In this document: positions 1,555-52,064 of the stretch, in pieces
How positions within the stretch are numbered: the first letter of the stretch is position 1
Layout of the letters: every line of letters starts with the position of its first letter
Origin: Syntrophomonadaceae bacterium
GTDB taxonomy: Bacteria; Bacillota; Dethiobacteria; DTU022
Length of the DNA stretch: 64,000 nucleotides
Assembly (NCBI GenBank): GCA_003554395.1
Contig: PWGD01000148.1
Location: 5,958-69,957 of the forward strand
Reading direction: 5' to 3'
The notes under the pieces: model-generated
Databases searched by the model: none
What the model saw: the letters and a program-made list of their open reading frames with translations, nothing else
What the model was told of the DNA's origin: nothing
Made by a program: the position numbers and the translations under genes

Positions 1555-1767
1555 TTGGAATAAACTCTAATGCAATATTATTCTTCTTATTGAAGCAGCG
1601 GCGATCAGGATCCGGCAATTTTTTGCCCGGATCTGAAGGAAAATATAAACAAATTGGCGAATGTATAAATTTAGTGAAGAAAAATAGGTGAAGAAAAAGG
1701 GAATTTTGATGATCCACTGCTTGGAAGGATTATAAAATTATCGAATACGCTTAACGGAGGAATTTTG

Positions 1768-2949: not shown

Positions 2950-2963
2950 TTAAGGAGGTTTTT

Positions 2964-3902: not shown

Positions 3903-3949
3903 AAACCTGAACTAAGATATAACTAGCTTTACAATGAGAGGTTGTTAAA

Positions 3950-22604: not shown

Positions 22605-23510
22605 ATGACCAAAGGCCTCATTTTCAATATTCAACGATATTCACTGCATGACGGACCGGGAATAAGAACGACGATCTTTTTAAAAGGCTGCCCCTTGAGC
22701 TGCTGGTGGTGCCAGAATCCGGAGAGCATCAACCGGGAACCTGATCTCATGAGGCAACCCGACCGCTGCCTGGGCTGCGGTTCCTGCCAGGAAGCCTGCC
22801 CGGAAGGGGCGGTCAGAAGCGGTAAAGTCGGGCCGGTTATAGACCGTGACCTCTGCACCCGCTGCCTGAAATGCACTGTGGTTTGTCCTGCAGAAGCCCT
22901 GGAAGCGGTGGGTAGAGAATATACGGTATCAGAACTGGTAAGGGAAGCGCTCAAGGATCGTTTTATTTTTGACAGTTCAGGGGGCGGGGTAACTTTTTCC
23001 GGTGGAGAACCCCTGATGCAGCCCGATTTTCTTGAAGAGTCTCTTCAGGCCTTTTGCAAGGAAGGAATCCATACAGTTGTGGATACTTCCGGTTGTGCGC
23101 CCTGGCCGATCCTGGAAAAAATTTCTGTTTACACCGACCTGTTTCTGTATGATCTTAAATTGATTGACGACCTCGAAAGTGAGGAATATACCGGCTTATC
23201 AAGCCGTTTGAGTGTGGAGAACTTAAAAAAGCTGGTGGAAAAAGGGGCTTTGATTCAAATTCGGATGCCGGTAGTTCCTTTAATCACCGATTCCATCGCA
23301 AATATTAATTCCATAGCCGATTTGCTTATTGAATGCGGCCTTAATGAGTTGGAACTAATACCTTATCACAATTACGGCACTGCCAAGTATGCCAGGCTTG
23401 ATCTTGAATACCGGCCCGGAACAATAAAGGTTCCCACGGCAGAACAAATGGACAGGATCAAAGCCCGCTTTGAGAACCGGGGAATAAGAATAAGCAGTGA
23501 GGATGATTGA
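22605..23510 (+). CDS. Glycyl-radical-enzyme activating enzyme (radical SAM) with two extra ferredoxin-like [4Fe-4S] motifs
   Basis: The radical-SAM CxxxCxxC motif is CPLSCWWC, in the N-terminal context YSLHDGPGIRTTIFLKGCPLSC typical of GRE activases. Two additional clusters are CLGCGSCQEACPEG and CTRCLKCTVVCPAEA. Its stop (23510) abuts the start of the GRE gene. Confidence 0.85.
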   Translation: MTKGLIFNIQRYSLHDGPGIRTTIFLKGCPLSCWWCQNPESINREPDLMRQPDRCLGCGSCQEACPEGAVRSGKVGPVIDRDLCTRCLKCTVVCPAEALEAVGREYTVSELVREALKDRFIFDSSGGGVTFSGGEPLMQPDFLEESLQAFCKEGIHTVVDTSGCAPWPILEKISVYTDLFLYDLKLIDDLESEEYTGLSSRLSVENLKKLVEKGALIQIRMPVVPLITDSIANINSIADLLIECGLNELELIPYHNYGTAKYARLDLEYRPGTIKVPTAEQMDRIKARFENRGIRISSEDD

Positions 23511-23511
23511 T

Positions 23512-25893
23512 ATGAATAACAACAGAAGAGGGATGAATGAAAGGATAAAAAAATTAAGGCAGCAAAGCGAAGATACAAACCCGTCAATCACCGCTGAAAG
23601 AGCTTTGCTGGTCACTGAGGCTTATCAGCATTATGCCGGTAAAGTATCCGCACCAATACTCAGGGCGCTTACATTTCAGCACCTGCTGGAGAACAAGACC
23701 ATCTGCATCAATGAAGAGGAGCTGATAGTCGGAGAACGCGGAACCGGACCCCAGGCCACGCCCACTTACCCCGAATTGTGCTGCCATACCGTCGAGGATC
23801 TGGAAGTGATCAACAACCGTAAAACCATTTCTTTTAAGGTAAGTGAAGAGGTGAAGCGGATTCAGGAAGAAACTCTGATTCCTTACTGGCAGGGCCGTTC
23901 CATGCGGGATAAAATATTTAACAGGATGAGCCCTGAATGGCTTGACTGTTACAAAGCCGGACTATTTACCGAATTTATGGAACAGCGCGCACCCGGTCAT
24001 ACCGTGGCCGGAGATAAGATTTACCGGAAAGGGATGCTCGATCTAAAAGAAGAAATTGCCGCTGCCCTGGGCTCTCTTGATTTTGCCAATGACCCTGAAG
24101 CTGTTTCCAAGAACGAGCAGCTGGAAGCCATGTCTCTCTGTGCCGATGCCCTGATCACTTTTGCCGGCAGGCATGCCCAAAAAGCCCGGGAGATGGCGGA
24201 AGAAGAAACCAACCCCCGGCGCAAGGAAGAGCTGCAGCAAATTGCTTCTGTCTGTCAGCGTGTGCCGGCCCTGCCGCCCCGTAATCTCTGGGAAGCACTC
24301 CAGTATTACTGGTTCGTGCACCTGGGAGTGGTGACCGAACTTAATACCTGGGACGCCTTCTGCCCGGGAAGACTTGATCAACATCTGGCCCCCTTCTACT
24401 ACAGGGGCCTGGAAGAAGGAACGCTGACCAGGGCTGGAGCGAAAGAGTTGCTGGAATGCTTCTGGATCAAATTTAACAACCAGCCTGCTCCACCCAAGGT
24501 GGGAATTACTTTAAAGGAGAGCGGTACATATACCGATTTTGCCAACATCAACCTGGGTGGAGTTAAACCAGATGGCAGTGACGGTGTAAATGATGTTACC
24601 TATTTGCTGCTGGAAGTAATCGATGAGATGAGGCTGCTGCAGCCGAGCACCAACGTCCAGGTCAGTAAAAAAAGTCCCGACCTTTTCCTTAAAAAAGCAG
24701 GAGAGGTTATCAGGAAAGGGTGGGGCCAACCTTCAGTTTTTAATGTTGAAGCAGTCATCGGCGAACTGCTGGGCCAGGGCAAATCCCTGGTTGACGCCCG
24801 TTGCGGAGGAACCAGCGGCTGCGTGGAAACCGGCGCTTTTGGCAAAGAGAGTTATATCCTGACCGGGTATTTCAACCTGGTAAAGGTTCTCGAAATAACC
24901 CTTAACGGCGGTAAAAATCCGGCGGACGGCAAACAACTGGGCCTGGATACCGGCAGCCCGGAGCGGCTTGAAAATTTCGAGCAGCTGCTCGAAGCCTTTG
25001 AAAAACAGCTCCGCCATTTTATTGACATCAAAATCGCCGGCAACCAGGTCATTGAAAAATTATATGCTGAACAAATGCCGGCCCCATTTTTATCCCTGAT
25101 TATTGATGATTGCATCGATAAGGGCAAGGACTATAATGCCGGCGGGGCCCGCTATAACACCAATTATATACAGGGTGTGGGCATCGGTACCATTACCGAC
25201 AGCCTTTCAGCGCTTAAAAAGCATATCTATGATGAAAAGAATTTTACCTGGGATGAACTGCTCGATACCTTAAAAGACAACTACCAGGGGCAGGAACAGG
25301 CCCGGCAATTTTTGATCCATAAAACCCCGCATTATGGAAACGATAATGACTATGCCGACTCTGTCATGCAGGATGTTTTTAAACGTTTTTACCGCACCGT
25401 GGACGGGCGCAGGACGGCCCGCGGGGGAACATATCGCATCAATATGCTGCCCACCACCTGCCACGTCTATTTTGGGTCGGTCATTGGAGCGACACCTGAT
25501 GGGCGCCTGGCCGGAATGCCCTTATCGGAAGGTATTTCACCGGTCCAGGGCGTTGATTTAAACGGGCCCACAGCGGTAATTAAATCAGCCTCGAAGATGG
25601 ATCACCTGCTTACCGGCGGCACCCTGCTGAACATGAAATTTACCCCCCGGATCCTGGAGGGAAACAAGGGGTTGGATAGCCTGGCCCAGCTGATCCGGTC
25701 ATATTTCATACTGGACGGCCACCATATCCAGTTTAATGTAATCGATGCCGAGACCCTGCGCGAGGCTCAAAATAATCCGGAACAATACCGCAGCCTGATC
25801 GTAAGGGTGGCCGGATACAGCGACTATTTCAATAACTTAAGCGAACAGCTTCAAAATGAGATCATTGCCCGGACGGCCCATGAAATGGGCTAA
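23512..25893 (+). CDS. Glycyl radical enzyme of the pyruvate-formate-lyase superfamily, eliminase (GCVE) clade. It is a candidate 4-hydroxyproline dehydratase or diol dehydratase type, with substrate unresolved.
   Basis: The C-terminal glycyl-radical motif is LIVRVAGYSDYFNNL (RVxGY). The active-site segment DARCGGTSGCVETG carries a Cys-x-Glu pair as in glycerol dehydratase, CutC and HypD. Size is ~794 aa. A GAGGA site lies 7 nt before ATG 23512; the ORF track starts at GTG 23497. Confidence 0.85.
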   Translation: MNNNRRGMNERIKKLRQQSEDTNPSITAERALLVTEAYQHYAGKVSAPILRALTFQHLLENKTICINEEELIVGERGTGPQATPTYPELCCHTVEDLEVINNRKTISFKVSEEVKRIQEETLIPYWQGRSMRDKIFNRMSPEWLDCYKAGLFTEFMEQRAPGHTVAGDKIYRKGMLDLKEEIAAALGSLDFANDPEAVSKNEQLEAMSLCADALITFAGRHAQKAREMAEEETNPRRKEELQQIASVCQRVPALPPRNLWEALQYYWFVHLGVVTELNTWDAFCPGRLDQHLAPFYYRGLEEGTLTRAGAKELLECFWIKFNNQPAPPKVGITLKESGTYTDFANINLGGVKPDGSDGVNDVTYLLLEVIDEMRLLQPSTNVQVSKKSPDLFLKKAGEVIRKGWGQPSVFNVEAVIGELLGQGKSLVDARCGGTSGCVETGAFGKESYILTGYFNLVKVLEITLNGGKNPADGKQLGLDTGSPERLENFEQLLEAFEKQLRHFIDIKIAGNQVIEKLYAEQMPAPFLSLIIDDCIDKGKDYNAGGARYNTNYIQGVGIGTITDSLSALKKHIYDEKNFTWDELLDTLKDNYQGQEQARQFLIHKTPHYGNDNDYADSVMQDVFKRFYRTVDGRRTARGGTYRINMLPTTCHVYFGSVIGATPDGRLAGMPLSEGISPVQGVDLNGPTAVIKSASKMDHLLTGGTLLNMKFTPRILEGNKGLDSLAQLIRSYFILDGHHIQFNVIDAETLREAQNNPEQYRSLIVRVAGYSDYFNNLSEQLQNEIIARTAHEMG

Positions 25894-25922: not shown

Positions 25923-25951
25923 GTTGACATTAAGATCTAAATAAGCTAAAA
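25923..25951 (+). promoter_or_regulatory. Sigma-A-type promoter for tRNA-Trp
   Basis: TTGACA, then 17 nt, then TAAAAT. It ends ~12 nt upstream of the tRNA 5' end. Confidence 0.55.
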
Positions 25952-25963
25952 TATGAGCTGTGA

Positions 25964-26039
25964 AGGGGAGTAGCTCAACTGGCAGAGCAGCGGTCTCCAA
26001 AACCGCAGGCTGCGGGTTCAAGTCCTGTCTCCCCTGCCA
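25964..26039 (+). tRNA. tRNA-Trp (anticodon CCA)
   Basis: AGGGGAGUAGCUCAACUGG…CGGUCUCCAAAACCG…GGUUCAAGUCC…CUCCCCUGCCA. Anticodon is CCA. Length is 76 nt. Confidence 0.85.
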
Positions 26040-26147
26040 TCGAGCTTGACGAGATGCCGCTTTAAAAGCGGCATCTCGCTAGATTGATCATTTAAAAGGA
26101 GAAGGCCTATGACCGGCCATGACTGGAAAATTTTACCTGAACCTTTT

Positions 26148-26185
26148 AGATCTACTTTTAAAAGTCGAAACCGGCTTTTTTTTTT
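26148..26185 (+). terminator. Hairpin plus U-tract downstream of tRNA-Trp
   Basis: AAAAGTCG-aaac-CGGCTTTTTTTTTT. A longer GC hairpin without a U-tract lies directly after the tRNA at 26050–26080. Confidence 0.4.
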
Positions 26186-26299: not shown

Positions 26300-27316
26300 T
26301 TGCATACTACTAATATTATACTATGGGGACTGGGAGCTATGGGTTCAGGTATTTACAAAGTTCTCCTGGAGCGCAGTGGCCCCGTTGTAAAAGGGGCAAT
26401 CGGCCAAAATCCCTTTAAGCTGGGCAAAGATTTGGGCACTATCCTGGGCATGGAACCAACCGGAACTATTATTTCCGGAGATGCGCAGGCAGTGCTTGAA
26501 AATGCCGATGCAGGGCTGGTTCTCCATTCCACCGGCTCATTCTTCAAAGAAATACATCACGAATTAATGCAGGCGGTCCGGGCGGGATGTAACGTCATTA
26601 CCATAGCTGAGGAGATGGCCGAGCCCTGGGCGGCCGATCAGATGCTGGCTGACGAGCTAAACGAAGAAGCTAAAAAATTTGGTGTTACAGTTATTGGAAC
26701 GGGCATTAATCCCGGTTTTGTCCTGGATGCCCTGGCCATCTGCCTTACCGGTGCCTGCTGTCAGGTCACCAAGATCGAGGCCGAAAGAATTAACGATCTA
26801 TCTCCATTCGGAAGCACTGTAATGGCTACCCAGGGTGTAGGGATTAGTCCGGAGCAATTTAAAAAGGGGATTGAGAATAACACTATTGTCGGGCATATAG
26901 GTTTCAAACAATCGATCTGCCTGATTGCCAGGGCTTTAAACTGGGATCTTGATCAAATTACCGAAGAAAAAGAGCCGATTATCTCATCTACTTACCGGGA
27001 GACTCCATATGTCAAAGTAGAGCCGGGCATGGTTGCCGGCTGCAATCACCGCGCCTACGGTTATATAAACGGCGAAGCAGTAATCACCCTTAAACACCCC
27101 CAGCAGGTATGCCCTGAAGCAGAAAACGTGGAAACCGGTGATTATATCAGAATTGAGGGCACCCCGCCGATAAACCTGTCCATAAAGCCTGAAATCCCGG
27201 GCGGCCTGGGAACGATGGCCATGGCGGTTAATATGATCCCGGTGGTGACTGCTGCCGGTCCGGGCTTGAAAACACTGCTGGACCTGCCTTTCCCTTCCTG
27301 CTGGAGCAGGGTATAG
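26300..27316 (+). CDS. ord: 2,4-diaminopentanoate dehydrogenase (DapB-like NAD(P) fold) of the ornithine oxidative pathway
   Basis: The N-terminal Rossmann motif is IILWGLGAMGSGIYKVL. The ~340-aa size and the position directly upstream of ortA, ortB, oraS and oraE match the described ornithine fermentation cluster. AGGAGGG lies before TTG 26300. Confidence 0.7.
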   Translation: MHTTNIILWGLGAMGSGIYKVLLERSGPVVKGAIGQNPFKLGKDLGTILGMEPTGTIISGDAQAVLENADAGLVLHSTGSFFKEIHHELMQAVRAGCNVITIAEEMAEPWAADQMLADELNEEAKKFGVTVIGTGINPGFVLDALAICLTGACCQVTKIEAERINDLSPFGSTVMATQGVGISPEQFKKGIENNTIVGHIGFKQSICLIARALNWDLDQITEEKEPIISSTYRETPYVKVEPGMVAGCNHRAYGYINGEAVITLKHPQQVCPEAENVETGDYIRIEGTPPINLSIKPEIPGGLGTMAMAVNMIPVVTAAGPGLKTLLDLPFPSCWSRV

Positions 27317-27397
27317 CCGAATTAAAAAGGTTTTAATTTAACTGTAATTCAAAAAGCGGGCGGTTAAGAGCAATCTGCCCTGAAAGGAGAATCAACT

Positions 27398-27712
27398 ATG
27401 GAAAAAGCGCAGACAGGTGACTGGGTCCAGGTCTTCAAAGTGGTTCTCAAACCGGAGGAAAGAGCCCCCGGCCTGCCCCCGGAAACTGCCAAAGTCCCCC
27501 TGACTATGAAGGTTAAGGGTTTCCTGATCGATCAAGCGGCCGCGGTTGGCGATCAGGTAGCAATCCGGACTGCAACAGGCAGAAAAGTGGAGGGGAAGCT
27601 GATCGGGATCAATCCGGCCTACGAGATCGATTATGGCCGGCCCCAGCCGGAACTATTAAATATAGGCTTTGAAACAAGAAGCCTGTTAAGTGGGGAGGCC
27701 GACAAGCAGTGA
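27398..27712 (+). CDS. ortA: 2-amino-4-ketopentanoate thiolase, small (alpha) subunit
   Basis: It is ~104 aa, translationally coupled to the PLP subunit that follows, and conserved in gene order with ord upstream. Confidence 0.65.
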   Translation: MEKAQTGDWVQVFKVVLKPEERAPGLPPETAKVPLTMKVKGFLIDQAAAVGDQVAIRTATGRKVEGKLIGINPAYEIDYGRPQPELLNIGFETRSLLSGEADKQ

Positions 27713-29127
27713 ATAACAACCCTGATTTTAGCTACCAGGGAGTAATGTCCAGGAAAAACCGGATTATGAAGCAGGCTGTAGGTATCGACTATGATCAGTT
27801 CGAGCTGGAGGGGATTGCCTTTGATTACGATGCAATGATGAACAAGGCCGGTTATTCACTGGAAGAAGTGCGTAAAATCCAGGAGGAAACCAATGTGGGC
27901 AAAACCCCGCTCTTTGAAATGCATAACCTGACCAAGCTGGTACGCCTCCATGCGGAACCGGGAAAAGGAGCGCGCATTTTTATCAAGGATGAAGCCTGCA
28001 ATCCCAGCGGCAGTTTCAAGGCGCGGCGGGCTTCGCTATCATGTTACCAGGCCCAAAAGCAAGGCTACAGGGGCGTAATATCGGCCACCAGCGGCAATTA
28101 CGGCGCCGCAGTGGCCTCCCAGTCCGCCATGCGCGGTTTGAACTGCATCGTGGTCCAGGAACTTTTCGACAGCCAGGATTTAAGCCAACCGGAAATTATG
28201 GAAAAAGGCCGGGCCTGCGAAGCCTACGGCGCTGAAGTGGTCCAGCTTTCCGTGGGGCCGGAGCTGTTTTACAAGTTCCTGATTTTGCTGGAAGAGACGC
28301 AGTATTTCAATGCCTCATTATATACCCCTTTCGGTATTGCCGGCATTGAAACTCTCGGCTATGAACTGGCCGAACAGGTTCGCCGGACGGTGGGCAAAGA
28401 TCCTGCCGCTGTCCTTATCACCCATGCCGGGGGCGGAAATGTGACCGGCACAGCCAGAGGCCTTCAAAAAGCGGGTTGTAAAGATACAGATGTGATCGGC
28501 ATCAGTGTCGACTTAAGCGGCCTGCACATGGCCAGCGATCACGATTTCAACCGGAAATCATTTACTACCGGCCACACCGGTTTTGGGGTTCCCTTTGCCA
28601 CTTGGCCGGACCGGGCTGATGTGCCGCGAAATGCGGCCCGTTCCTTGAGGTACCTGGATCGCTATTATACGGTGACCCAGGGTGAAGTTTTTTACATGAC
28701 CGAACTCCTGGCCCAGTTGGAAGGGCTTGAAAGAGGCCCGGCAGGCAATACTTCCCTGGCCGGAGCTTTTGCCTTAGCCATGGAAATGGACCGCGACGAT
28801 GTCATTGTTGTACAGGAAACAGAATACACGGGAGCCGGAAAGCACCCCAGCCCCCAGCTTACTTTTGCCCGCAAACTGGGCATAGCGGTAAAAAGGGGCA
28901 AGCCTGAAGAGAGCATCCCCGGTCAGAATATTATCATCCCTGAATCCCCGGCCCAGATAGCGGTTAAAAGGGTAGACCTGGACAACTTAAAAAAATCGTA
29001 CCTAAAGAAGGTGGCCCAGGAAAAGGGCGGTGGAGCCTTGAGTCCGGTAGAACTGGATTATCTGGCCGCCGAACTGAAGACTTCAACCGGATGGGTTGAA
29101 AAACATTACGGGAAGGCAGGAGGATAA
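27709..29127 (+). CDS. ortB: 2-amino-4-ketopentanoate thiolase, PLP-dependent beta subunit (tryptophan-synthase-beta/threonine-synthase fold)
   Basis: The fold-type II PLP lysine motif is NPSGSFKARRA, and a glycine-rich loop TSGNYGAAVA is present. It is ~472 aa and overlaps the ortA stop (GTGA). Confidence 0.7.
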   Translation: MNNNPDFSYQGVMSRKNRIMKQAVGIDYDQFELEGIAFDYDAMMNKAGYSLEEVRKIQEETNVGKTPLFEMHNLTKLVRLHAEPGKGARIFIKDEACNPSGSFKARRASLSCYQAQKQGYRGVISATSGNYGAAVASQSAMRGLNCIVVQELFDSQDLSQPEIMEKGRACEAYGAEVVQLSVGPELFYKFLILLEETQYFNASLYTPFGIAGIETLGYELAEQVRRTVGKDPAAVLITHAGGGNVTGTARGLQKAGCKDTDVIGISVDLSGLHMASDHDFNRKSFTTGHTGFGVPFATWPDRADVPRNAARSLRYLDRYYTVTQGEVFYMTELLAQLEGLERGPAGNTSLAGAFALAMEMDRDDVIVVQETEYTGAGKHPSPQLTFARKLGIAVKRGKPEESIPGQNIIIPESPAQIAVKRVDLDNLKKSYLKKVAQEKGGGALSPVELDYLAAELKTSTGWVEKHYGKAGG

Positions 29128-29128
29128 T

Positions 29129-29497
29129 ATGAAGCGCGAGGATGATTACAGGCAGCGCCGTTCCACGGTGAAAAATTTAACCGATGAGCAGCTGGATCAT
29201 AAATTTTGGGGACTAACCGACCAAGTGGTTAACCCCCTTTTCGAGCTGGCCCGGGGCCATACTTCACCATCTATTGAACGTTCCGTCCTGCTGAGGATGG
29301 GCTTTTCCAGCCTGGAGGCCAAGCAAATCGTCCTGAATTGCGGTAAATATGGCCTGCTGGGCAAAGGAGCAGGGCACGTAGTGCTGCGCTTTGCCCAAAA
29401 ACGCAACCTGCCATACCGGGAAGCCGGCTTAATTTTGGCCGAGGGCCGGGAATGGGATCAGGCTGCAGCCTTGTTTGAAAAGGAGGGGCCATCTTGA
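29129..29497 (+). CDS. oraS: D-ornithine 4,5-aminomutase, small (S) subunit
   Basis: It is ~122 aa from the ATG preceded by GGAGG (MKREDDYRQRRS…). It lies immediately upstream of, and overlapping, the large E subunit. The ORF track has a longer N-terminal extension from 29096. Confidence 0.65.
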   Translation: MKREDDYRQRRSTVKNLTDEQLDHKFWGLTDQVVNPLFELARGHTSPSIERSVLLRMGFSSLEAKQIVLNCGKYGLLGKGAGHVVLRFAQKRNLPYREAGLILAEGREWDQAAALFEKEGPS

Positions 29498-31710
29498 AAC
29501 TAACACCGGAACAAAAACTTTCCCCTGAAGAGATTTTAAAAGACCTGGACCGGTACAGACCAAGACGCAAAGGCTGGACCTGGCGCCGCTCGATAAAGGA
29601 TGATGATGCTAAAATTGGGCCCTTTGAATACCGGCAGGCTGCTGAACCCCTCAAAAAAAGTATTCCCCTGCCTGCGGCCAAATCATTTGGCGGCATAGAT
29701 CCGCACCCTGGTTGTGTGGTCACCTCGGAAATTGCTTCCGGGCGTTTTGAAGATGATCTCCGCCGGATGAGGATGGTGGCCTGGCACGGGGCCGACCATC
29801 TCATGGTTATTCGGACCGCGGGGCAAAGCCACTTCGACGGTTTAATCGAAGGCACTCCTGAAGGAGTAGGCGGGGTGCCCATTTCAAGAAAGCAGATCCG
29901 GGCCACCCGCAAAGCCCTGGACCTGATTGAAGATGAAGTAGGTAGACAGCTTAACTTTCATTCCTACATAAGCGGGGTGGCCGGCCCGGAAATAGCCGTT
30001 CTTTTTGCTGAAGAAGGGGTTAATGGCGCCCACCAGGACCCTCAGTACAATGTCCTTTACCGGAATGTAAACATGTACCGCTCTTTTGTCGATGCGGCTG
30101 TAGCCAAAAAATTAATGCTTTCTGCCAATATCCTGCAGATAGACGGGGCCCATAACGCCAATGCTACGGCCAGGGAAGCCTGGAAGGTGATGCCGGAACT
30201 ATTAGTGCAGCATGCCATAAACTGCCGCTATTCGGAACTTGTCGGCATGCCCCGGGAAAACATCGCTCTTTCTACGGTTCCGCCAACCGCACCGCCGGCC
30301 CCGGCCCTGCGCATAGACCTGCCTTACGCGGTGGCCCTGCGCCAGCTTTTTAAAGATTTTAAAATGCGGGCCCAGATGAACACCAAGTATATGGAATCAT
30401 GCACCAGGGAAGTAACCGTTACCCACCCCCTCAACCTGCTCTTATCGAGACTGACCAGCGCCGATATCCAGAGCACAATTACTCCCGATGAAGGACGTAA
30501 CGTGCCCTGGCATTACAATTCTGTTCATGCCGTCAATACGGCCAGGCAGGCCCTGATCGGCCTGGATGGGATTACGGACATGGTTAAATTAAACCTGGAA
30601 GGAGAACTGGGCCATAAATCCCGGGAATTAAAAGAACGGGCCGTGCTCTTCCTGGAGGAAATCCTGGAAGTTGGAGGTTATTTTGCCGCTGTTGACCAGG
30701 GCTTTTTTGTCGATTCCGGCTTTTACCCGGAACGAAACGGGGACGGCATTAAACGTGATCCCGCGGGCGGGGTGGCATCCGATTCTATAGTGCCCCGCGA
30801 AGAGGATTATTATGCCCCCGTCTGCCACCACTTTGGATACAACAACCCGCCAATTGATTTTGGGGATCATTCTTCACCATGCGCCCCCATCGATGGTTGC
30901 TCCCTCTGCCGACCCGAAAAAATTATATACATTGACGAATTAGACCCTGAAGACAATGTTGAAAAAAGACTTGAGAAAAGCAGGCAATACCGGGAGAATA
31001 CCTTTAAGCCTGAAGCAGAGTGGGCCGGCGACGGAATTGTAACCATGACCATGTTACTGCCAGTATCTGAAGACATGGCAGAATATGGCGCCATGGATAT
31101 TGCCGGGCGTATGAACCTGGAAGATGTCGAAGTGATTAACCTGCAAAAAATGCACCCCGCGGAAGGCACCCTGGTAGAAATCAAAGGCAGGGTCGGTTTC
31201 AGCCTTGACCCGAAGAATATAACCATACCTCATAAAGAAGCTGTCCTTTCAGAAGAGGAAATCCGCCTGGCGGTCCAGAACAGGCCTCTCACTATAGTGG
31301 CCGGCACCGTCGGCGAAGACGAACATTCAGTTGGCATGAGAGAGATTCTTGACATTAAGCACGGTGGGCTGGAGGGATTTGGCATAGACTGCCACTACCT
31401 GGGAACATCGGTGCCGATCGAAAAGATGGCTGATGCTGCAGTCGAACTTGATGCCGACGCTATTTTGATCAGCACTATTATCACCCACAATGATGCTCAC
31501 CGTCAGAGTATGCGCAAACTAAACCAGGTTTGCCGGGAAAAAGGGCTGCGCGACGAGTTAATCTTAGTTGCCGGAGGAACCCAGGTAACCAATGAAATCG
31601 CCCAGGAAGAAGGTCTCGATCGGGGTTTTGGTCGAGGAACCAAGGGGATTGATGTTGCCAGTTTCCTGATCAAAAAAAAGGATTCGGTGGAAAAGAATCG
31701 TGAAAATTGA
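29494..31710 (+). CDS. oraE: D-ornithine 4,5-aminomutase, large (E) subunit, adenosylcobalamin- and PLP-dependent
   Basis: It is ~738 aa. The C-terminal B12-binding domain carries a DxHxxG motif (EDEHSVG) and a GG…GTQ Rossmann-like segment. The N-terminal TIM-barrel part is aminomutase-like. Confidence 0.75.
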   Translation: MKLTPEQKLSPEEILKDLDRYRPRRKGWTWRRSIKDDDAKIGPFEYRQAAEPLKKSIPLPAAKSFGGIDPHPGCVVTSEIASGRFEDDLRRMRMVAWHGADHLMVIRTAGQSHFDGLIEGTPEGVGGVPISRKQIRATRKALDLIEDEVGRQLNFHSYISGVAGPEIAVLFAEEGVNGAHQDPQYNVLYRNVNMYRSFVDAAVAKKLMLSANILQIDGAHNANATAREAWKVMPELLVQHAINCRYSELVGMPRENIALSTVPPTAPPAPALRIDLPYAVALRQLFKDFKMRAQMNTKYMESCTREVTVTHPLNLLLSRLTSADIQSTITPDEGRNVPWHYNSVHAVNTARQALIGLDGITDMVKLNLEGELGHKSRELKERAVLFLEEILEVGGYFAAVDQGFFVDSGFYPERNGDGIKRDPAGGVASDSIVPREEDYYAPVCHHFGYNNPPIDFGDHSSPCAPIDGCSLCRPEKIIYIDELDPEDNVEKRLEKSRQYRENTFKPEAEWAGDGIVTMTMLLPVSEDMAEYGAMDIAGRMNLEDVEVINLQKMHPAEGTLVEIKGRVGFSLDPKNITIPHKEAVLSEEEIRLAVQNRPLTIVAGTVGEDEHSVGMREILDIKHGGLEGFGIDCHYLGTSVPIEKMADAAVELDADAILISTIITHNDAHRQSMRKLNQVCREKGLRDELILVAGGTQVTNEIAQEEGLDRGFGRGTKGIDVASFLIKKKDSVEKNREN

Positions 31711-33055
31711 TCTACTAGTTGCAGATATCGGAAGCACCATTACTATGATTAGTGCCTTTGATGGCCTGGGTATCGGGCGGCCCGCCTTCCTGGGCCAGGG
31801 GCAGGCTCAAACTTCAGTAGAGTCTGAAGATGTTACTATTGGGCTTTCCAAGGCCCTGGTCAACCTGGAAGAAAAGCTAGGTGAAAAAATAGCCTGGGAT
31901 CGTTTTTTAGCCTCCAGTTCGGCAGCGGGCGGTTTAAGAATGTCCGTCCATGGCCTGGTTTACGATATGACCGCGAAGGCCGCCAAAGAAGCAGCCCTGG
32001 GAGCGGGCGCAGTTGTTAGCATGGTTACAGCCGGCGAGCTCACTGAAGAGAATCTGGAGGGCCTGACTGCAGTTAATCCCAGTATCATCCTCCTGGCCGG
32101 AGGAGTAGATCACGGAGAAAAAGAGACCATCTTAAAAAATGCATCTCTACTCAGCAGCTGGTTAAGAGAGCAGGGAAAAACCCTTCCGGTCATTTACTGC
32201 GGCAACCAGGCTGCGTTTAAAAAGGCCCATAGCATATTCAGAGATAAAGAGCTTTCCCTGATCAATAGCGAAAACGTATATCCTAAAATAGATCAATTAA
32301 ACGTAGAGCCGGTGCGAAGAGAGATACATCGTGTTTTTAACAGGCATATTGTTGAAGCCAAGGGAATGGAAAAAATACGCTCTATGGTGGAAGAAGAAAT
32401 AATCCCCACCCCGGGGGCAGTCATGGAAGCCTCTCTTCTGTTTTATAAGCATAGGGGGGATTTGCTGGTTTTTGATGTTGGAGGGGCTACGACAGATGTG
32501 CATTCTGTAACAGATGGTTCCGATGATATTCAACACCTGCTGCTTCACCCCGAACCTAAAGCTAAAAGAACTGTCGAAGGAGATCTGGGGGTATATCGGA
32601 ATGCTCCCCGTTTGATTGAACTGTGCATGGAAAATAGCAACAACCCAGGATTTGAGAGCAATCTTCAGGCCGGTATTGAACCGATCCCCGGCAGCAGCCG
32701 GCAGATCGAACTGATCGGGATTCTGACCGAACAGGCTTTAAAAACAGCCCTGATCAGGCATGCTGGATCCTGGCGCTATATATATGGTCCTACAGGCCGT
32801 CAGACAATGGTTGAAGGTAAAGATCTCACCTGCATAAAAACGGCAATCGGAACCGGGGGCGCCCTGTCCCAATTGCCGGGAGGGAAAGAAAAAATGGCGA
32901 AGGCCCTGAAAGGTAAAACCGGCCTTGAGTTGCTGCCCCGCGGTGATGTGATGCATTTAATAGACAATTACTATATAATGGCTGCAGTAGGGGTTCTCAG
33001 CATGAGCGACCCCGATAGTGCCTGGCAGCTTTTATCCAGAAGTCTAAACTTATAA
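31700..33055 (+). CDS. GlmL/MutL-like actin-fold accessory protein, a putative reactivase/chaperone for the B12 aminomutase
   Basis: The N-terminus [17 protein letters not shown] is an ASKHA phosphate-1 motif. It is ~450 aa, as for glutamate-mutase GlmL/MutL-type proteins, and is translationally coupled to oraE. Confidence 0.55.
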
Positions 33056-33078
33056 CCAATACAACTTATATAAACGGG

Positions 33079-34278
33079 GTGATTTCAATTACCAGTACAA
33101 AGGAAATACTAAGTATCACTGAACAGTATGGGGCCCGTAATTATCTGCCGCTGCCGGTTGTCTTATCACGGGCGGAAGGAGTATGGGTTGAAGATCCGGA
33201 GGGCAACCGCTACATGGATATGCTCAGCGCCTATTCGGCTATGAATTTTGGCCATCGGCATCCTAAAATTATCAAAACATTAAAAGAACAGGCGGACCTG
33301 ATTACGGTCACTTCCAGGGCTTTTAATAACGATAAGCTGGGCCCTTTTTGTAAAAAATTAGCGCTGCTAACGGGTAAAGAAAAAGTCTTGCCCATGAATA
33401 CAGGAGCTGAAGCGGTGGAAACTGCGATCAAGGCCGTCCGCAGGTGGGCCTATCGCAAGAAAAATATTCCAGAAAATAAAGCAGAAATCATAACCTGTAC
33501 CAATAACTTTCACGGCCGGACTACAACCATCATTTCTTTCAGCACAGATGAAACCTGCCGCAGCGATTTCGGGCCCTTTACCCCAGGATTTAAATTAATT
33601 GAATATGGCGATATCGAGGCCCTGAAAAAAGCAATAACCCCTAATACGGCCGGCCTGCTCATCGAACCGATTCAAGGCGAGGGGGGGATTATCATCCCTC
33701 CGGAAGGCTACCTTCGGGAGGCCTACCGGCTGTGCCGGGAAAACAATGTTTTGTTTATGGCCGATGAGATTCAAACCGGCCTGGGCCGCACCGGCAGGCT
33801 TTTTGCCTGTGACTGGGAGGATGTTACACCCGATGTGTATATCCTGGGCAAAGCCTTAGGAGGTGGAGTGTTGCCGGTTTCAGCCGTCACCGCTGACAAC
33901 TATATCATGGATGTTTTCGATCCCGGTTCACACGGGTCCACTTTCGGAGGCAATCCGCTGGGCGCCGCCGTGGCCATGACCGCTTTAGATGTTCTGGAAG
34001 AAGAACAACTGGTTCGCAAATCTGAGGAGAATGGAAAGTACTTCGTGGAAGAGCTAAGAAAAATAAACAGCCCGCACCTGGTTGAAGTTAGAGGTAGAGG
34101 GCTTTTGGTAGGGATGGAGCTCAAAGTCAAAGCGCGGTCGTACTGTAAAAAACTGATGGAGTTAGGGATCCTTTCCAAGGAAACCCATGTTAACGTAATC
34201 AGGTTTACTCCACCATTAATTTCCACTAAGAAGGAGTTGGACTGGGCCCTGGAAGCGATCAAAAAAGTATTTGCGTGA
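33079..34278 (+). CDS. rocD: Class III (omega) aminotransferase, ornithine–oxo-acid aminotransferase-like
   Basis: The N-terminus …[48 protein letters not shown]… closely follows the ornithine aminotransferase consensus. The motifs [10 protein letters not shown] and [11 protein letters not shown] are present. Confidence 0.8.
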
Positions 34279-34837
34279 TTAAATTAACAAATAAAAATTT
34301 TTAAAAAGCTATTGACAAATTAGCAGTACCGATCAATAATACCAGTACCAGGTTCCGAGAGACTGGAACGCGAACCGGGTTCGGTCGAGAGGGAAGGCCG
34401 GAAGTGAAGGAAGGGTTAACCCGAATTCACGGAAGGTTATCCACAAGGCCGAATCGCTGCAGGAGCCGGTAAAAGAAAGGCTTAAGAGCCGGGATTTACC
34501 GGAAATCACAGCACGGAGAAAAGTAGCTGTCCGGAGGTTGGGGGGAAAGCCATCCAGAGGTGGTGGCGGAAGCCCGGCTGTAGAGGGGTCAGTGAAGAAA
34601 TCCGACGGTGAGCTGGAAGGCCTGTTGGGACCTGGTTTATTATGAATGGCCCTTATTACAGTTTCAACCTGCGCTGTCTTACTTCTTATCCTAAAAGCTT
34701 ATTCACCTTTGCTTTTAAGCCCTATCCAAAAAGTATGGCCCGGAATATAGCCACATATCTTCATCCCCTAGCTATTGCATTAATTATGCCATTTGGTTAG
34801 AATAAGTGTTAAGTTTTAAAAGAGAGGAAAGATTAAA

Positions 34838-35653
34838 ATGAACAGTGAAAAAATTGGTTTAATTGGCTGTGGAGCGATGGGTTCGGCCCTGGCAAAAGGG
34901 ATCGTAAAAAGAGTAGGTATCGATCCGGCTTTAGTATACCTTTATGACCTTAACCGCGATCGTGTTGAGGAGCTGGCCCTTGAATTGAATGCTGTCGGCG
35001 CAGATAACCTGGAAGAGCTGATTACGCAATGCCGGCAGGTATTTATCGCCGTGAAACCACAGGATATTGAAAGCCTTCTTTATTCAATAAAAGATTTGGT
35101 GCATAAAGGCCAGATCTTTGCTTCTATTGCAGCCGGTATAACCATTAGTTTTATAGAAAGTTGTTTACCTCCGTCCAGCAAGGTAATTCGCCTGATGCCC
35201 AATACCCCCTGCTTATTGGGCGAAGGGTCAATCGCGATCAGCGCCGGTGACAATGTAACGCCGGAAGAACGCGAGCATATTGAAAAACTCCTCAAATCGA
35301 TGGGTTTAACTATACGCATTCCGGAATACCTGATGGATGCGGCAACCGGCTTGAGCGGGACCGGTCCGGCATACGTATTCCTGTTCATTGAAACAATGAT
35401 TGATGCCGGGGTAGCGGTTGGGTTCCGCCGCGATGTGGCATCTGAGATGGTGGTTCAGAATGTTATTGGCTCAGCCCGCATGCTCCAGGAAAACAACAAG
35501 CAGCCCCCGGCCGAGCTGAGAAACTCTGTAACTTCACCGGCAGGAACGACCACGGCAGCTATGCATGTGTTGGAGGAATCCGGTTTTCGAAGCTGCCTGC
35601 TTAAATCAGTAATTGCGGCCACAAATCAAGCGGAGAAATTACGCCGTGGTTGA
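34838..35653 (+). CDS. proC: Pyrroline-5-carboxylate reductase
   Basis: The N-terminus KIGLIGCGAMGSALAKGI (Rossmann) and the C-terminal P5CR dimerisation motifs (…SPAGTTTAAMHVLEE…) are present. Confidence 0.9.
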   Translation: MNSEKIGLIGCGAMGSALAKGIVKRVGIDPALVYLYDLNRDRVEELALELNAVGADNLEELITQCRQVFIAVKPQDIESLLYSIKDLVHKGQIFASIAAGITISFIESCLPPSSKVIRLMPNTPCLLGEGSIAISAGDNVTPEEREHIEKLLKSMGLTIRIPEYLMDAATGLSGTGPAYVFLFIETMIDAGVAVGFRRDVASEMVVQNVIGSARMLQENNKQPPAELRNSVTSPAGTTTAAMHVLEESGFRSCLLKSVIAATNQAEKLRRG

Positions 35654-36776
35654 AAGAAATAGTGTTTCTTCTCCCGTTTCCCGCCGCATCGTAGTTAAAG
35701 TAGGAACCCGCTTACTGACCCACAGCACCGGAAAATTGAACCTGGGCTATATGGAGAAACTTACCAGGGTCCTGGCCGATCTACGAAACCAGGGCCACGA
35801 AGTGATCCTGGTTTCATCAGGTTCTATTGGGGCCGGACGGGGCAGACTTAACATTACCAGGAATCCAATTTCCATTCCTGAAAAACAGGCTATAGCTGCT
35901 GTAGGCCAGGGCCTTCTGGTCCAAATTTATGAAAAACTGTTTGCCGAATACGGCCTGATCGTAGGGCAGATCCTTTTAACCCGCACTGACCTGGTAAGCA
36001 GACGGCGTTACATCAATGCCTGCAATACGGTTTTAACCCTTCTCAAGCTCGGTGTTGTGCCCATTATCAACGAAAATGATTCAGTTTCGGTGGAAGAGCT
36101 GAAATTTGGCGATAATGACCGCCTGTCAGCACTGGTAGCCGGTTTAAGCGATGCTCACCTCCTGGTTATTCTGACCGATATCGAGGGGTTGTACAATAAG
36201 AACCCGAGGAAATACCAGGATGCCGAGCTGATTCCGTACGTGGAAAAAATAGACGATAGTATTAAAGCCGGAGCAGAAAAATCACATGACGATCTGGCAA
36301 CAGGAGGAATGGTCACCAAACTTCAGGCTGCTGAAGTAGCATCCAATTCCGGCGTTGGGATGTACATTGCCAATGGTTATGATCCCGGGGTAGTTACCAG
36401 ACTGGTTAAGGGAGAGCATATTGGCACTTATTTTCAGCCCCAGGAACATTTTCTCAGCAGGCGTAAAAGGTGGATTGCTTATGGACAGGTCCCGCAGGGC
36501 AGTGTGACGATTGACAAAGGGGCCTGCAACGCCATTTGCTTTGAAGGTAAAAGTTTACTGCCAGTGGGGGTTATCGGTGTGGAAGGCTCGTTTGTTGAAG
36601 GTGACCTGATTACAGTTAAAGACCCGGCGGGCAATGAAATGGCCAGGGGATTAACAAATTTTTCCTCTGAAGAGCTGAATTGGATCCAAAAAAGAAGCAG
36701 CCCGGATATTGCTAATATTATGGAGAGGCCGGTTGCCGAAGAAGTAATCCACAGGGATAACCTGGTTATTTATTAA
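35646..36776 (+). CDS. proB: Glutamate 5-kinase, with a C-terminal PUA domain
   Basis: …RRIVVKVGTRLLT… is the amino-acid-kinase N-terminus, with a PUA domain at the C-terminus. The likely start is GTG 35646, preceded by GGAGA 10 nt upstream. The ORF track starts at TTG 35613, which overlaps proC. Confidence 0.85.
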   Translation: MVERNSVSSPVSRRIVVKVGTRLLTHSTGKLNLGYMEKLTRVLADLRNQGHEVILVSSGSIGAGRGRLNITRNPISIPEKQAIAAVGQGLLVQIYEKLFAEYGLIVGQILLTRTDLVSRRRYINACNTVLTLLKLGVVPIINENDSVSVEELKFGDNDRLSALVAGLSDAHLLVILTDIEGLYNKNPRKYQDAELIPYVEKIDDSIKAGAEKSHDDLATGGMVTKLQAAEVASNSGVGMYIANGYDPGVVTRLVKGEHIGTYFQPQEHFLSRRKRWIAYGQVPQGSVTIDKGACNAICFEGKSLLPVGVIGVEGSFVEGDLITVKDPAGNEMARGLTNFSSEELNWIQKRSSPDIANIMERPVAEEVIHRDNLVIY

Positions 36777-36816: not shown

Positions 36817-38070
36817 ATGAACCCAGAAGTGCTGGATAAGTGTATGTTGGCTCGCCAGGCAGCAAAAAAGCTGTCCGGTTGTCCGACTGCGGTCAAGAAC
36901 AGGGCCCTTGAAAAAATTGCTCAAGCTCTTGAAAATAACAAGAAAGATATTATCGAAGCCAATAAAAAAGATTTAGATCGTCTGCAAAAAGAAGAACACT
37001 ACTCCGATGCCTTTTATGATCGGCTCCTTTTAAACGAAGAACGGATTGTTGATATGGCCGCAGGCCTAAAAGATATCGCTGCCCTCAGGGACCCGGTAGG
37101 AGAAGTCACCAGGATGTGGAAGCGCCCCAACGGCTTGGAAATTGGACAGGTCCGTGTTCCAATCGGGGTGGTCGCCATCATCTATGAAGCCCGCCCCAAC
37201 GTAACCATCGATGCAGCCGGACTAACCCTGAAGACAGGGAATGCTGTAATCCTGCGCGGCAGTTCCGAGGCTCTAAATTCAAACCGGGCTCTGGTAAATT
37301 TAGCTCGGGAAAGCCTTTTAAAACTTGATCTTCCGGAGGGCTCCGCAGCCCTGATCGAAGATACAGGCCGTGCTGCCGCCATGGATTTAATGAAGGCCAA
37401 TCAATATTTAGATTTGCTTATACCCCGCGGTGGACCCTCCCTGATAAACACCGTTATAAATAACTCATCGGTTCCGGTTATCCAGACCGGTGCAGGCAAC
37501 TGCCATGTTTATATTGATTCTAAGGCCGATTTGAATCAAGCAGTAGCTATAACTATCAATGCTAAAGTGCAGCGGCCCGGAGTATGCAATGCCCTTGAAA
37601 CATTACTGGTTCATAAAGATATCGCCTCCAGTTTTTTGCCCAAGATTTTACCGGAATTAATGAAATTGGGCGTTGAAATAAGAGGCTGCCCGGTGACAAA
37701 AACATTTTCCCCTGAGGTTAAAGCGGCATCTGAGGAAGACTGGAGCACTGAATACCTTGATCTGATCCTGGCTGTTAAGGTTGTGGAGGATCTGGATCAA
37801 GCTGTCGAACATATTAACTCTTTCGGTACGGGCCATTCGGAAGCCATTATTACCGACAGTTATAGCCGCTCTCGAAAATTCCTGGCCCGGATAGATGCAG
37901 CTGCTGTATATGTCAATGCATCAACTCGTTTTACAGATGGTTCCGCTTTCGGGCTGGGAGCAGAAATGGGGATCAGCACCCAAAAGCTGCACGTCAGGGG
38001 CCCGATGGGACTGGAATCCCTGACTACGCTAAAATATTTCATTTTCGGGTCTGGACAAATCAGGGAATAA
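36817..38070 (+). CDS. proA: Gamma-glutamyl phosphate reductase
   Basis: It belongs to the aldehyde-dehydrogenase family and carries the ProA motifs GNAVILRGSSEA and the catalytic-Cys region (…PGVCNALETLLVH…). Confidence 0.9.
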   Translation: MNPEVLDKCMLARQAAKKLSGCPTAVKNRALEKIAQALENNKKDIIEANKKDLDRLQKEEHYSDAFYDRLLLNEERIVDMAAGLKDIAALRDPVGEVTRMWKRPNGLEIGQVRVPIGVVAIIYEARPNVTIDAAGLTLKTGNAVILRGSSEALNSNRALVNLARESLLKLDLPEGSAALIEDTGRAAAMDLMKANQYLDLLIPRGGPSLINTVINNSSVPVIQTGAGNCHVYIDSKADLNQAVAITINAKVQRPGVCNALETLLVHKDIASSFLPKILPELMKLGVEIRGCPVTKTFSPEVKAASEEDWSTEYLDLILAVKVVEDLDQAVEHINSFGTGHSEAIITDSYSRSRKFLARIDAAAVYVNASTRFTDGSAFGLGAEMGISTQKLHVRGPMGLESLTTLKYFIFGSGQIRE

Positions 38071-50510: not shown

Positions 50511-52064
50511 TTAACCGTATCCGTTTATTTTAAGCAATTTATTAAGGCCATTGAGATAAGCTTTTACGCTGGCTTCGATAATGTCAGTACTTGTGCCCCG
50601 GCCGGTAATGGTCCGGTCCTGGTAAGATAAGTTTACCTGAACTTCACCGAGGGCGTCGCGGCCCTGGGTTACGGCATTAATTTTATATTTTTCCAGGCCG
50701 ATACTCAAACCTGTGATCTTGTTGATGGCATTATAAGCAGCGTCAATGGGGCCGGCCCCGGTAGCAACCTCCTCGATAGTATTGCCGTCTTCTTTCATAA
50801 GGCGGATTACAGCCGAGGGGATGCTTTTACTGCCGCTGACTGTCTGCAGGTAGTCAAGCCTGTACCTTGGCTCGATAGCGGAAATATGATCGAGAACCAG
50901 GGCTTCCAGGTCTTCCGGGTAAACCTCTTTCTTTTTATCGGCAAGCTCGACAAAATGATTATATATCACATTCAGCTGATCCCGGTTTAAAGCAAAACCA
51001 AGCTTTTTCAACTGATCAAGCACAGCATGCCTTCCGGATCGAGCGGTCAGACACATCTTAGCAGCGCTGCCACCGATAAATTCAGCATCGATGATTTCAT
51101 AAGTTTCCTTGTTTTTCAATACGCCGTCCTGGTGAATGCCGGAGGAATGGGAGAAGGCATTAAGGCCGACCACGGCTTTGTTGACCGGGATGGAAATATT
51201 GGTTAATTTGCTGACCAGCCGGCTGGTCCGGTAGATTTCTGAAAAATTAAGATCGGTATAATAGGAAAAATAATTTTGCCGAATCCGCAGGGCCACTGCA
51301 ATCTCTTCCAGGGAAGCATTGCCGGCCCGCTCACCGATACCGTTAATATTGCATTCTACCTGGCGGGCGCCGTTTTTTATAGCTTCCAGGGAATTGGCAA
51401 CAGCAAGTCCCAGGTCATTATGACAGTGTACGCTGATCATGGCTTGATCGATATTTTTGACATTTTCCCTGAGGCGGAGAATTAGGGCCCCAAATTCTTC
51501 TGGAACGGCATAGCCAACCGTATCGGGAATATTGATCACCCTGGCCCCGGCATTAATGACTGCCTCGATCATTTCATAAAGGTACTCTTCATCAGCCCGG
51601 CTGGCATCTTCCGGTGAATACTCAATATCATCGGTAAAACGCTTCGCATATTTAACGGCATCTACAGCCTGTTCCAGGATTTGAGCGGGTTCTTTATTGA
51701 ATTTGTGCTGGATATGGATGGCGGAAGCTCCTAAAAAAACATGGAGGCGGGGCTGTTCCGCTTCTTTGATCGCCTCCCAGGCCGCATCTATATCTGCTTT
51801 AACCGCCCTGGCCAGCCCACAGATAGTTGGCCCCTTGATCTGCCTGGCGATTTCCTGGACGGCCTTCATTTCTCCAGGTGAAGATATAGGGAAACCGGCT
51901 TCGATAATATCTACATTCAGGCGGGCCAGCTGGCGGGCAACCTCAACTTTTTCATCATAATTAAGCCGGGCCCCGGGAGTCTGCTCTCCGTCGCGCAGGG
52001 TGCTGTCAAAAAGGTATATTTTTTCTGCTCCTTTGGATTTTATTACTTCCACTTGCTCATTCAT
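50511..52064 (-). CDS. leuA: 2-isopropylmalate synthase / (R)-citramalate synthase family member (LeuA/CimA)
   Basis: The N-terminus YLFDSTLRDGEQTPGA is the DRE-TIM metallolyase motif. HCHNDLG is present, and a C-terminal LeuA-dimerisation regulatory domain follows. Size is 517 aa. A GGAGGAG ribosome-binding site is present. Confidence 0.85.
   Translation of the reverse strand: MNEQVEVIKSKGAEKIYLFDSTLRDGEQTPGARLNYDEKVEVARQLARLNVDIIEAGFPISSPGEMKAVQEIARQIKGPTICGLARAVKADIDAAWEAIKEAEQPRLHVFLGASAIHIQHKFNKEPAQILEQAVDAVKYAKRFTDDIEYSPEDASRADEEYLYEMIEAVINAGARVINIPDTVGYAVPEEFGALILRLRENVKNIDQAMISVHCHNDLGLAVANSLEAIKNGARQVECNINGIGERAGNASLEEIAVALRIRQNYFSYYTDLNFSEIYRTSRLVSKLTNISIPVNKAVVGLNAFSHSSGIHQDGVLKNKETYEIIDAEFIGGSAAKMCLTARSGRHAVLDQLKKLGFALNRDQLNVIYNHFVELADKKKEVYPEDLEALVLDHISAIEPRYRLDYLQTVSGSKSIPSAVIRLMKEDGNTIEEVATGAGPIDAAYNAINKITGLSIGLEKYKINAVTQGRDALGEVQVNLSYQDRTITGRGTSTDIIEASVKAYLNGLNKLLKINGYG

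Follow-up and report, generated by a model that had tools for sequence, protein, structure and literature searches.

An ornithine oxidation cluster without a linked ornithine racemase gene, followed by an ornithine aminotransferase gene, in a Syntrophomonadaceae bacterium

The oxidative ornithine pathway is a textbook vitamin B12-dependent Stickland route that is relevant to colonization by C. difficile, and genome annotation and metabolic models usually count the ornithine racemase gene, orr, as a part of it. The locus described here carries the other six genes of the route and lacks orr. It lies in a 64,000-nucleotide (nt) stretch of DNA, referred to as the window, that spans positions 5,958 to 69,957 of contig PWGD01000148.1 (assembly GCA_003554395.1) of a Syntrophomonadaceae bacterium, a lineage whose habitat, judging from contig names, is probably soda-lake sediment. 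The six genes are followed directly by rocD, which encodes an ornithine aminotransferase (OAT). In window coordinates, and with model scores beside their cut-offs, the seven genes are:

26300-27316, + strand: ord, 2,4-diaminopentanoate dehydrogenase (NF040740, 474 bits, cut-off 400; DAP_DH_C, 323 bits)
27398-27712, + strand: ortA, small subunit of 2-amino-4-oxopentanoate thiolase (NF040739, 122 bits, cut-off 70; PF22010)
27709-29127, + strand: ortB, pyridoxal 5'-phosphate (PLP) subunit of 2-amino-4-oxopentanoate thiolase (NF040741, 827 bits, cut-off 550)
29129-29497, + strand: oraS, small subunit of D-ornithine 4,5-aminomutase (PF16552 OAM_alpha, 163 bits)
29494-31710, + strand: oraE, adenosylcobalamin (AdoCbl)/PLP subunit of D-ornithine 4,5-aminomutase (NF040743, 1321 bits, cut-off 800)
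31700-33055, + strand: or-4, GlmL-related putative reactivase/chaperone (NF040744, 597.1 bits, cut-off 600; Pfam MutL, 489 bits)
33079-34278, + strand: rocD, ornithine-oxo-acid aminotransferase (NF003145, 661 bits, cut-off 656; TIGR01885, 534 bits, cut-off 378)

An earlier account of this DNA, the sequence-only reading, had assigned all of these genes correctly: each is on the + strand where it was placed, and models of the ornithine pathway are matched. The likeness that it drew to the described Stickland ornithine-oxidation cluster also holds, with all six genes present and five above curated thresholds. Or-4 falls 2.9 bits short of its cut-off; NF040744 is still its top match by 224 bits (the GlmL model reaches 373 bits), and the gene follows oraE, as it does in most of the loci used for comparison below. 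None of the NCBIfam models searched matched OraS, whose start codon (122-amino-acid (aa) product) was taken from the gene calls of contig L081. The translational coupling that had been proposed for the whole series stands for part of it. Overlaps are present at ortA/ortB, oraS/oraE and oraE/or-4, and ortB is followed by oraS after 1 nt, while wider gaps separate ord from ortA (81 nt), or-4 from rocD (23 nt) and rocD from proC (559 nt).

Two look-alikes had been named as threats to the ornithine assignment, a lysine 5,6-aminomutase (KamDE) in place of OraE and a DapB paralogue in place of Ord, and model scores rule out both. Lysine 5,6-aminomutase has the fold and cofactors in common with the ornithine enzyme (TIM barrel plus B12-binding Rossmann domain, PLP), but OraE reaches only 143 bits with NF052385 (cut-off 280) and 132 bits with NF052384 (cut-off 600), and, unlike a lysine fermentation cluster, the window has neither kamA nor kdd. 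Against the C. sticklandii D-ornithine 4,5-aminomutase structure (3KOW) OraE scores 1094 bits, versus ~106 bits against the KamD and KamE structures. For Ord, DapB_N gives 23.9 bits, below its cut-off of 25.6, versus the 323 bits of DAP_DH_C. In an alignment of OraE with 15 homologues of diverse other lineages (alignment A1), every invariant column is retained, including the segments EIASGRFEDD, QIDGAHNANATA, MRAQMNTKY and TPDEGRNVPWH and the DIKHGG lysine motif, and the active-site segments do not differ from those of the crystallized enzyme (3KOW). Nothing in the OraE sequence suggests a changed substrate or a switch to L-ornithine.

The assignment of rocD likewise held up when its substrate-specificity residues were checked by alignment. 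The product passes both equivalog cut-offs listed above and scores 562 bits against the Bacillus anthracis OAT structure (3RUY), with conserved active-site motifs, while models for acetylornithine (argD), gamma-aminobutyrate and putrescine aminotransferases all remain under their cut-offs. The motifs that hold what we take to be Y55, Y85, R180, E235, K292 and R413 in human OAT numbering agree with those of the B. anthracis enzyme in the alignment.

The absence of orr from the 64 kb, which the sequence-only reading had pointed out, is real and is unusual in comparison with other species. In Pfam scans, no open reading frame (ORF) of at least 100 aa in the window carries the Ala_racemase_N domain, and a six-frame tblastn search of the window with five Orr proteins and one cluster-linked alanine racemase (Alr) from relatives gave a best E value of 3.4. 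Remnants of orr were also sought upstream of ord and after rocD, and none was seen in the window or in the related loci L085, L087, L096 and L097.

The comparison with other species rests on 80 OraE loci (63-71% identity, up to 10 kb of flank, annotated by tblastn), which are among the matches listed in a search of genome contigs; all counts given for other species refer to these loci. In the canonical arrangement they read ord-ortA-ortB-oraS-oraE-or-4-orr. Of the 80, 60 have an Orr-type gene, which is the next gene after or-4 in 55 of them. In the subset of complete loci (n = 53, with none of the six genes missing and flanks of at least 1.5 kb at either end), Orr occurs in 46, only an Alr-type gene in three, and neither in four. 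A cluster without a linked racemase is a minority state, at roughly 8%. Genes for OAT and for the proline enzymes ProC, ProB and ProA were found in none of the 80 within the available flank, and the succession of the cluster by rocD and proCBA is, on these gene orders, specific to the lineage of the window.

Alr-type genes show patterns of their own. An Alr-type gene (Ala_racemase_N plus C domain) replaces Orr in the Halanaerobiales-like loci L015, L018, L021 and L045 and also in L088, whereas seven Anaerolineae- or Riflebacteria-like loci (L046, L054, L055, L058, L059, L062, L064) have both an Orr-type and an Alr-type gene after or-4. The presence of Alr beside Orr in some clusters may be explained by the product of OrtAB, which is D-alanine, and the presence of Alr instead of Orr perhaps likewise.

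On either side of the seven genes lie further features that bear on the history of the locus. The hydroxyproline genes, the tRNA unit and the structured RNA had not figured in the sequence-only reading; P5C stands for delta-1-pyrroline-5-carboxylate.

22605-23510, + strand: glycyl-radical enzyme activase of the HypD activase type (TIGR02494, 333 bits, cut-off 174; Radical_SAM and Fer4 domains)
23512-25893, + strand: hypD, trans-4-hydroxy-L-proline dehydratase, which makes P5C (NF043068, 1380 bits, cut-off 1100; PFL-like and Gly_radical domains)
25964-26039, + strand: tRNA-Trp (CCA), with a promoter-like site at 25924-25952 and hairpins at about 26050-26078 and 26160-26179 followed by a T-run
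34312-34340, + strand: strong promoter-like site TTGACA-17-AATAAT, expected to drive the RNA that follows (11/12 matches in the scan; kept in all homologues)
34347-34643, + strand: purine-rich structured RNA of ~295 nt, with a long 5'/3' closing helix and then a U-rich tail
34838-35653, + strand: proC, P5C reductase (TIGR00112, 261 bits, cut-off 197)
35646-36776, + strand: proB, glutamate 5-kinase (TIGR01027, 446 bits, cut-off 186)
36817-38070, + strand: proA, glutamate-5-semialdehyde dehydrogenase (NF001221, 594 bits, cut-off 289)

For hypD, the start codon is the one called in contig L081, which is identical. For its activase the best equivalog is NF043069 (T4HPD activase) at 358 bits, under the cut-off of 425. 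With HypD, the neighborhood would have a second source of P5C close to rocD and proC; a HypD of substantial identity (65%) is nearby in one of the 80 loci of other species. The tRNA-Trp unit sits between hypD and ord. The tRNA is followed by an ORF of 50 aa that has a good ribosome-binding site; it is called as a gene in L082 but appears, from the spacer sequences by eye, not to be conserved in L087.

Relatives of the window suggest how this arrangement arose. The same order, from ord through or-4 to rocD, the spacer and proCBA, is present in the near-identical contigs L081-L084, in L087 and L096 (87% OraE identity) and in L085 (81%). Other relatives have no ornithine block and retain rocD at 75-80% identity. 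For instance, L092, L095 and L098 have the order rtcB-tRNA-Trp-rocD-RNA-proCBA, L091 has rtcB-tRNA-Trp-rocD-RNA-moxR, and L099 has hypD-tRNA-Trp-rocD-rocA-RNA (RocA, 763 bits). The cluster is absent from L091, L092/L098, L093 and L099. Since the promoter-tRNA-Trp-hairpin unit stands directly before rocD in L091, L093, L098 and L099, the six-gene block is present or absent exactly between that unit and rocD.

Intermediate conditions occur as well. In L100-L102 (e.g., L101:178-5740) the order is rtcB-X345-orr-ortA-ortB, then remnants of or-4 that contain in-frame stops (tblastn E values of 1e-6 and 3e-5), and then rocD-RNA-proCBA. Since these or-4 fragments precede rocD, the or-4/rocD junction is old in the clade. 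L103 retains orr and a 37-aa fragment of ord. In two sister lineages (OraE identity 78-80%) the racemase gene is at the 5' edge of the cluster: L089 begins OAT-orr-ord, and L088 begins alr-ord, so that the slot that Orr has in L089 is taken by a true Alr (TIGR00492, 401 bits). The picture that these arrangements suggest is one in which the 5' boundary, where orr was located, was variable and the lineage of the window lost orr from it, while the 3' junction with rocD was fixed. The joining of the block to rocD and proCBA is a matter of lineage history. As a separate point, no family has been assigned to X345, and the intact state of orr, ortA and ortB in L100-L102, where ord and oraSE are gone, would be odd if ornithine oxidation were their sole role.

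The block nonetheless bears the marks of use. None of the six ORFs is disrupted in the window or in L085, L087, L096 and L097. Ratios of nonsynonymous to synonymous substitution rates (dN/dS, Nei-Gojobori) among three lineages without orr (window, L087 and L085) are 0.04-0.06 for oraE, 0.05-0.08 for ord, 0.07-0.08 for ortB, 0.08-0.11 for or-4, 0.12-0.14 for ortA and 0.10-0.21 for oraS, values that are approximate, as dS is ~1 or more and at or near saturation. The values for rocD and proCBA cannot be told apart from these. Such strong purifying selection (0.04-0.21 overall) argues that the genes kept functioning once orr was gone, and the pathway probably works without a linked orr, by means of a racemase encoded elsewhere.

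As regards transcription, the region would comprise three adjacent units, namely the activase gene with hypD, tRNA-Trp with its own promoter and hairpins, and a seven-gene operon ord-ortA-ortB-oraS-oraE-or-4-rocD, followed by an independent RNA gene of ~295 nt and then by proC-proB-proA with their own promoter. The 23-nt gap between or-4 and rocD is without a terminator-like site, versus a spacer of ~95-450 nt from the tRNA to rocD in relatives that lack the block; rocD would therefore depend on read-through from or-4, with which it is probably co-transcribed. A conserved promoter-like sequence, TTGCAT-17-TAGAAT, lies ~35-60 nt upstream of the proC start; it was read by eye from the sequence and the alignment and was not listed by the promoter scan. 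By eye, no convincing sigma-54-type promoter was seen upstream of ord.

The chemistry of the oxidative route, with racemization of L- to D-ornithine by Orr, has been described (PMC8803604, PMC13397332), and C. sticklandii both oxidizes ornithine and reduces it via proline (PMC3091704). In the lineage of the window, a racemase encoded elsewhere (e.g., in an argF-linked unit such as those of the relatives discussed below) would convert L-ornithine into D-ornithine. OraSE, which uses AdoCbl and PLP and has Or-4 as its presumed reactivase, would turn this into 2,4-diaminopentanoate, which Ord would oxidize to 2-amino-4-oxopentanoate, and OrtAB with coenzyme A (CoA) would cleave the latter to acetyl-CoA and D-alanine. 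RocD would divert part of the L-ornithine, with no need for a racemase, to glutamate semialdehyde/P5C. HypD and its activase would add P5C from hydroxyproline, and ProC, encoded next door, could reduce P5C to proline.

Where the racemase might be found is suggested by argF, which the sequence-only reading had joined to the ornithine genes:

2964-3902, + strand: argF, ornithine carbamoyltransferase (NF001986, 445 bits, cut-off 306)

The earlier proposal that argF and the cluster together form a citrulline/ornithine catabolic island is not supported by what the window contains. The gene is 22 kb from ord, across unrelated genes for DNA repair, methionine salvage, tRNA and RNA ligase, and the window has neither arcA nor arcC: ProB is its sole AA_kinase-family protein, and it has no gene of the amidinotransferase fold. 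Relatives, unlike the window, link argF to orr. L103-L105 were found among the nearest database matches to the Orr of the sister lineage, and their ArgF proteins are 75% identical to that of the window; the order is argF-X437-orr in L103 (L103:5645-9110) and L105 (L105:168-3640), and argF-orr directly in L104 (L104:4131-6269). L105 shares an NCBI assembly, GCA_036681025.1, with the orr-less locus L085. Most probably, a racemase gene in another part of the genome provides the D-ornithine in trans.

Two observations concern the surroundings of these argF genes. The 437-aa protein (MGAAGRDFHNFN...) of the argF-orr units is without an NCBIfam match and without a precomputed Pfam match, and a further instance of it is encoded a few genes before ord in an orr-less cluster of another species (L008:3370-4683). 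In the window, 1765-8308 (+) and 8262-9841 (-) hold the succession thiolase-argF-1452-aa BcrAD/DUF2229 gene-YolD(-)-DinB/IMS(-). This thiolase-argF-YolD-IMS stretch is syntenic with L088:2589-6773 and L103:5645-12664, where a racemase gene and ord, or a fragment of ord, adjoin YolD-IMS, and the ornithine genes seem to have occupied the YolD-IMS site in related genomes.

Taken as a whole, the account according to which orr was lost from the operon, the pathway stays functional with a racemase encoded elsewhere, and rocD is probably transcribed by read-through is the best explanation and is held with moderate confidence. Several points weigh against it. The racemase in trans is a pure inference, as none was found in the window; there, argF is followed by the 1452-aa BcrAD/DUF2229 activase-like gene and not by orr, and GCA_036681025.1 seems to be metagenome-scale, so that the co-membership of L085 and L105 is no proof of one organism. 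The shortfall of Or-4 and the saturation of dS have been mentioned. A sigma-70 promoter scan passed no site upstream of ord, and neither a proline reductase gene (prd) nor rocA is present within the 64-kb window.

The alternative that survives best, and one that is possible though doubtful, is that the proximity of rocD and proCBA to the block is inherited synteny without metabolic coupling, with proCBA leading from glutamate to proline and rocD taking part in the catabolism of ornithine or arginine to glutamate via a rocA elsewhere. It bears on the earlier proposal that one locus could route ornithine both to acetyl-CoA plus alanine and to proline. The identities and the adjacency of RocD and ProC stand; the rocD-RNA-proCBA series also exists without the ornithine block (L092, L095, L098), so the locus was not designed as a unit. 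The two-branch proposal is only partly supported because a promoter-like site and the RNA gene separate rocD from proC, because rocD is joined to rocA in L099 (hypD-tRNA-rocD-rocA), and because no proline reductase is in view. ProC, ProB and ProA form an operon of the standard biosynthetic type, and the lack of proC near any of the 80 clusters of other species points in the same direction. Coupling is favored by the 23-nt or-4-rocD junction, which the whole clade retains, the decayed L101 included, by L089, in which OAT is again linked to the cluster in another arrangement, and by the P5C-producing hypD in the neighborhood, given that linkage of hypD with a P5C reductase gene is a known functional pairing in Clostridia (PMC6219649).

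It is unlikely that the pathway dispenses with a dedicated racemase and relies instead on environmental D-ornithine, a housekeeping Alr, a racemase of broad specificity or an aminomutase that accepts L-ornithine. In its favor are the three complete clusters with Alr only, the four with neither gene, and the Alr of L088, which is directly upstream of ord, in the Orr position of L089. Orr, however, has a cysteine in place of the catalytic tyrosine of alanine racemases (PMC13397332), which argues for a distinct, specialized enzyme; the active-site segments of OraE are unchanged relative to homologues of other lineages, and a role in processing D-alanine, the product, would account for an Alr in the cluster just as well. 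A bolder variant, to which little credence can be given, is that ornithine dismutation proceeds from this one neighborhood without any Orr-family racemase, through an unrecognized activity or an OraSE tolerant of L-ornithine, with RocD-ProC as a proline sink and the RNA as a new regulator of P5C/proline metabolism.

That the cluster is a decaying remnant, its pathway having stopped on the loss of orr and its genes becoming pseudogenes, is quite improbable. Erosion is evident in the clade, where the cluster is missing from the four groups of relatives named above and partial in L100-L102 and L103, but in the window, L087, L085, L096 and L097 the six ORFs are intact, dN/dS matches that of the housekeeping proCBA genes, and curated models score far above their cut-offs. 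Finally, the idea that the aminotransferase-like gene is a disguised ornithine racemase of fold type I (class-III aminotransferase family), prompted by its position in the slot that holds orr in 55 of 60 clusters and by the solved racemases and epimerases of that family (9WRF, broad specificity; 9WQZ, alanine/serine; 5WYA, isoleucine 2-epimerase), can be rejected with near certainty, because the protein, at 562 bits with the B. anthracis OAT structure, reaches only 171-181 bits with those of the racemases and the epimerase, exceeds two OAT equivalog cut-offs with the motifs around the OAT residues conserved, adjoins rocA or proC at 75-80% identity in cluster-less relatives, and co-occurs with orr in L089.

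Set beside known systems, the arrangement is an unusual combination of ordinary parts and not a new system. The oxidative ornithine cluster of Acetoanaerobium (Clostridium) sticklandii and C. difficile (orr, oraS, oraE, or-4, ord, ortA, ortB), following the description of Fonknechten et al. (2009) as cited in PMC3091704, PMC8803604 and PMC13397332, contains the same six genes, and their order in the window is that of most of the 80 comparison species. In contrast to that cluster, the one described here is without orr, has a RocD-type OAT in the slot after or-4, and lies between tRNA-Trp and rocD-RNA-proCBA, a setting found in none of the 80 loci. A second precedent comprises the Bacillus-type RocD/RocA system and the Stickland route through OAT and P5C reductase (Kenklies et al. 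1999, as cited in PMC3091704); the window has an orthologue of RocD with proC adjacent, and its relative L099 has rocD-rocA. It differs in that rocD is attached to a B12-dependent operon and proC belongs to a proCBA of biosynthetic type, with no rocA, rocR, rocE or proline reductase gene in the window. The third is the hypD-P5C reductase pairing, to which the window corresponds in having hypD and its activase gene oriented like proC and 9 kb upstream of it, with P5C made by one enzyme and consumed by the other; here, unlike in that pairing, hypD and proC are split by a tRNA gene, the ornithine operon and the RNA gene.

The wider meaning is that the six genes do not need a linked racemase in order to be maintained under strong selection, and that an aminotransferase specific for L-ornithine can be added to the operon. 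The cluster alone is a poor ground for calling the pathway present or absent in a genome, and orr linked to argF is a place to look for the missing step. The most reusable by-products are a well-supported candidate for a structured RNA and a clear example of how this cluster is gained and lost as a module beside a tRNA gene, although the practical value is modest.

The RNA between rocD and proC looks like an independent small RNA gene. Nine distinct homologues yield a consensus structure with 13 helices and 81 base pairs, in which 94.9% of cells are paired. Pairs changed on both sides number 24, versus 10.3 ± 2.2 in column shuffles (none of 500 reaching the observed value) and 2-8 in slid controls, and G-U pairs fix its strand as +. 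In nhmmer searches it was seen only in the lineage of the window, always just downstream of rocD or rocD-rocA; proC comes next in most contigs, moxR in L091 and nuoE-like genes in L099. A match in L094 from a metagenome scan was discarded as a chance 23-mer inside coding sequence.

No Rfam family was found at E ≤ 1 for the spacer of the window, nor at E ≤ 10 for five homologues. A T-box (RF00230) or another known riboswitch was rejected for the rocD-proC spacer on that basis, while a T-box elsewhere in the window scores 125.6 bits. Its resemblance to the motifs of RNase P, signal recognition particle RNA, 6S RNA and cobalamin riboswitches appears only loose. A reading as a CsrA sponge was dropped, as the number of GGA motifs is about that expected from base composition (a hand estimate).

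The T-box leader just mentioned, at 52128-52357 (-), is upstream of a leuA-like gene at 50511-52064 (-), and a gene of the phage-integrase family lies immediately beyond it at 52609-53625 (+).

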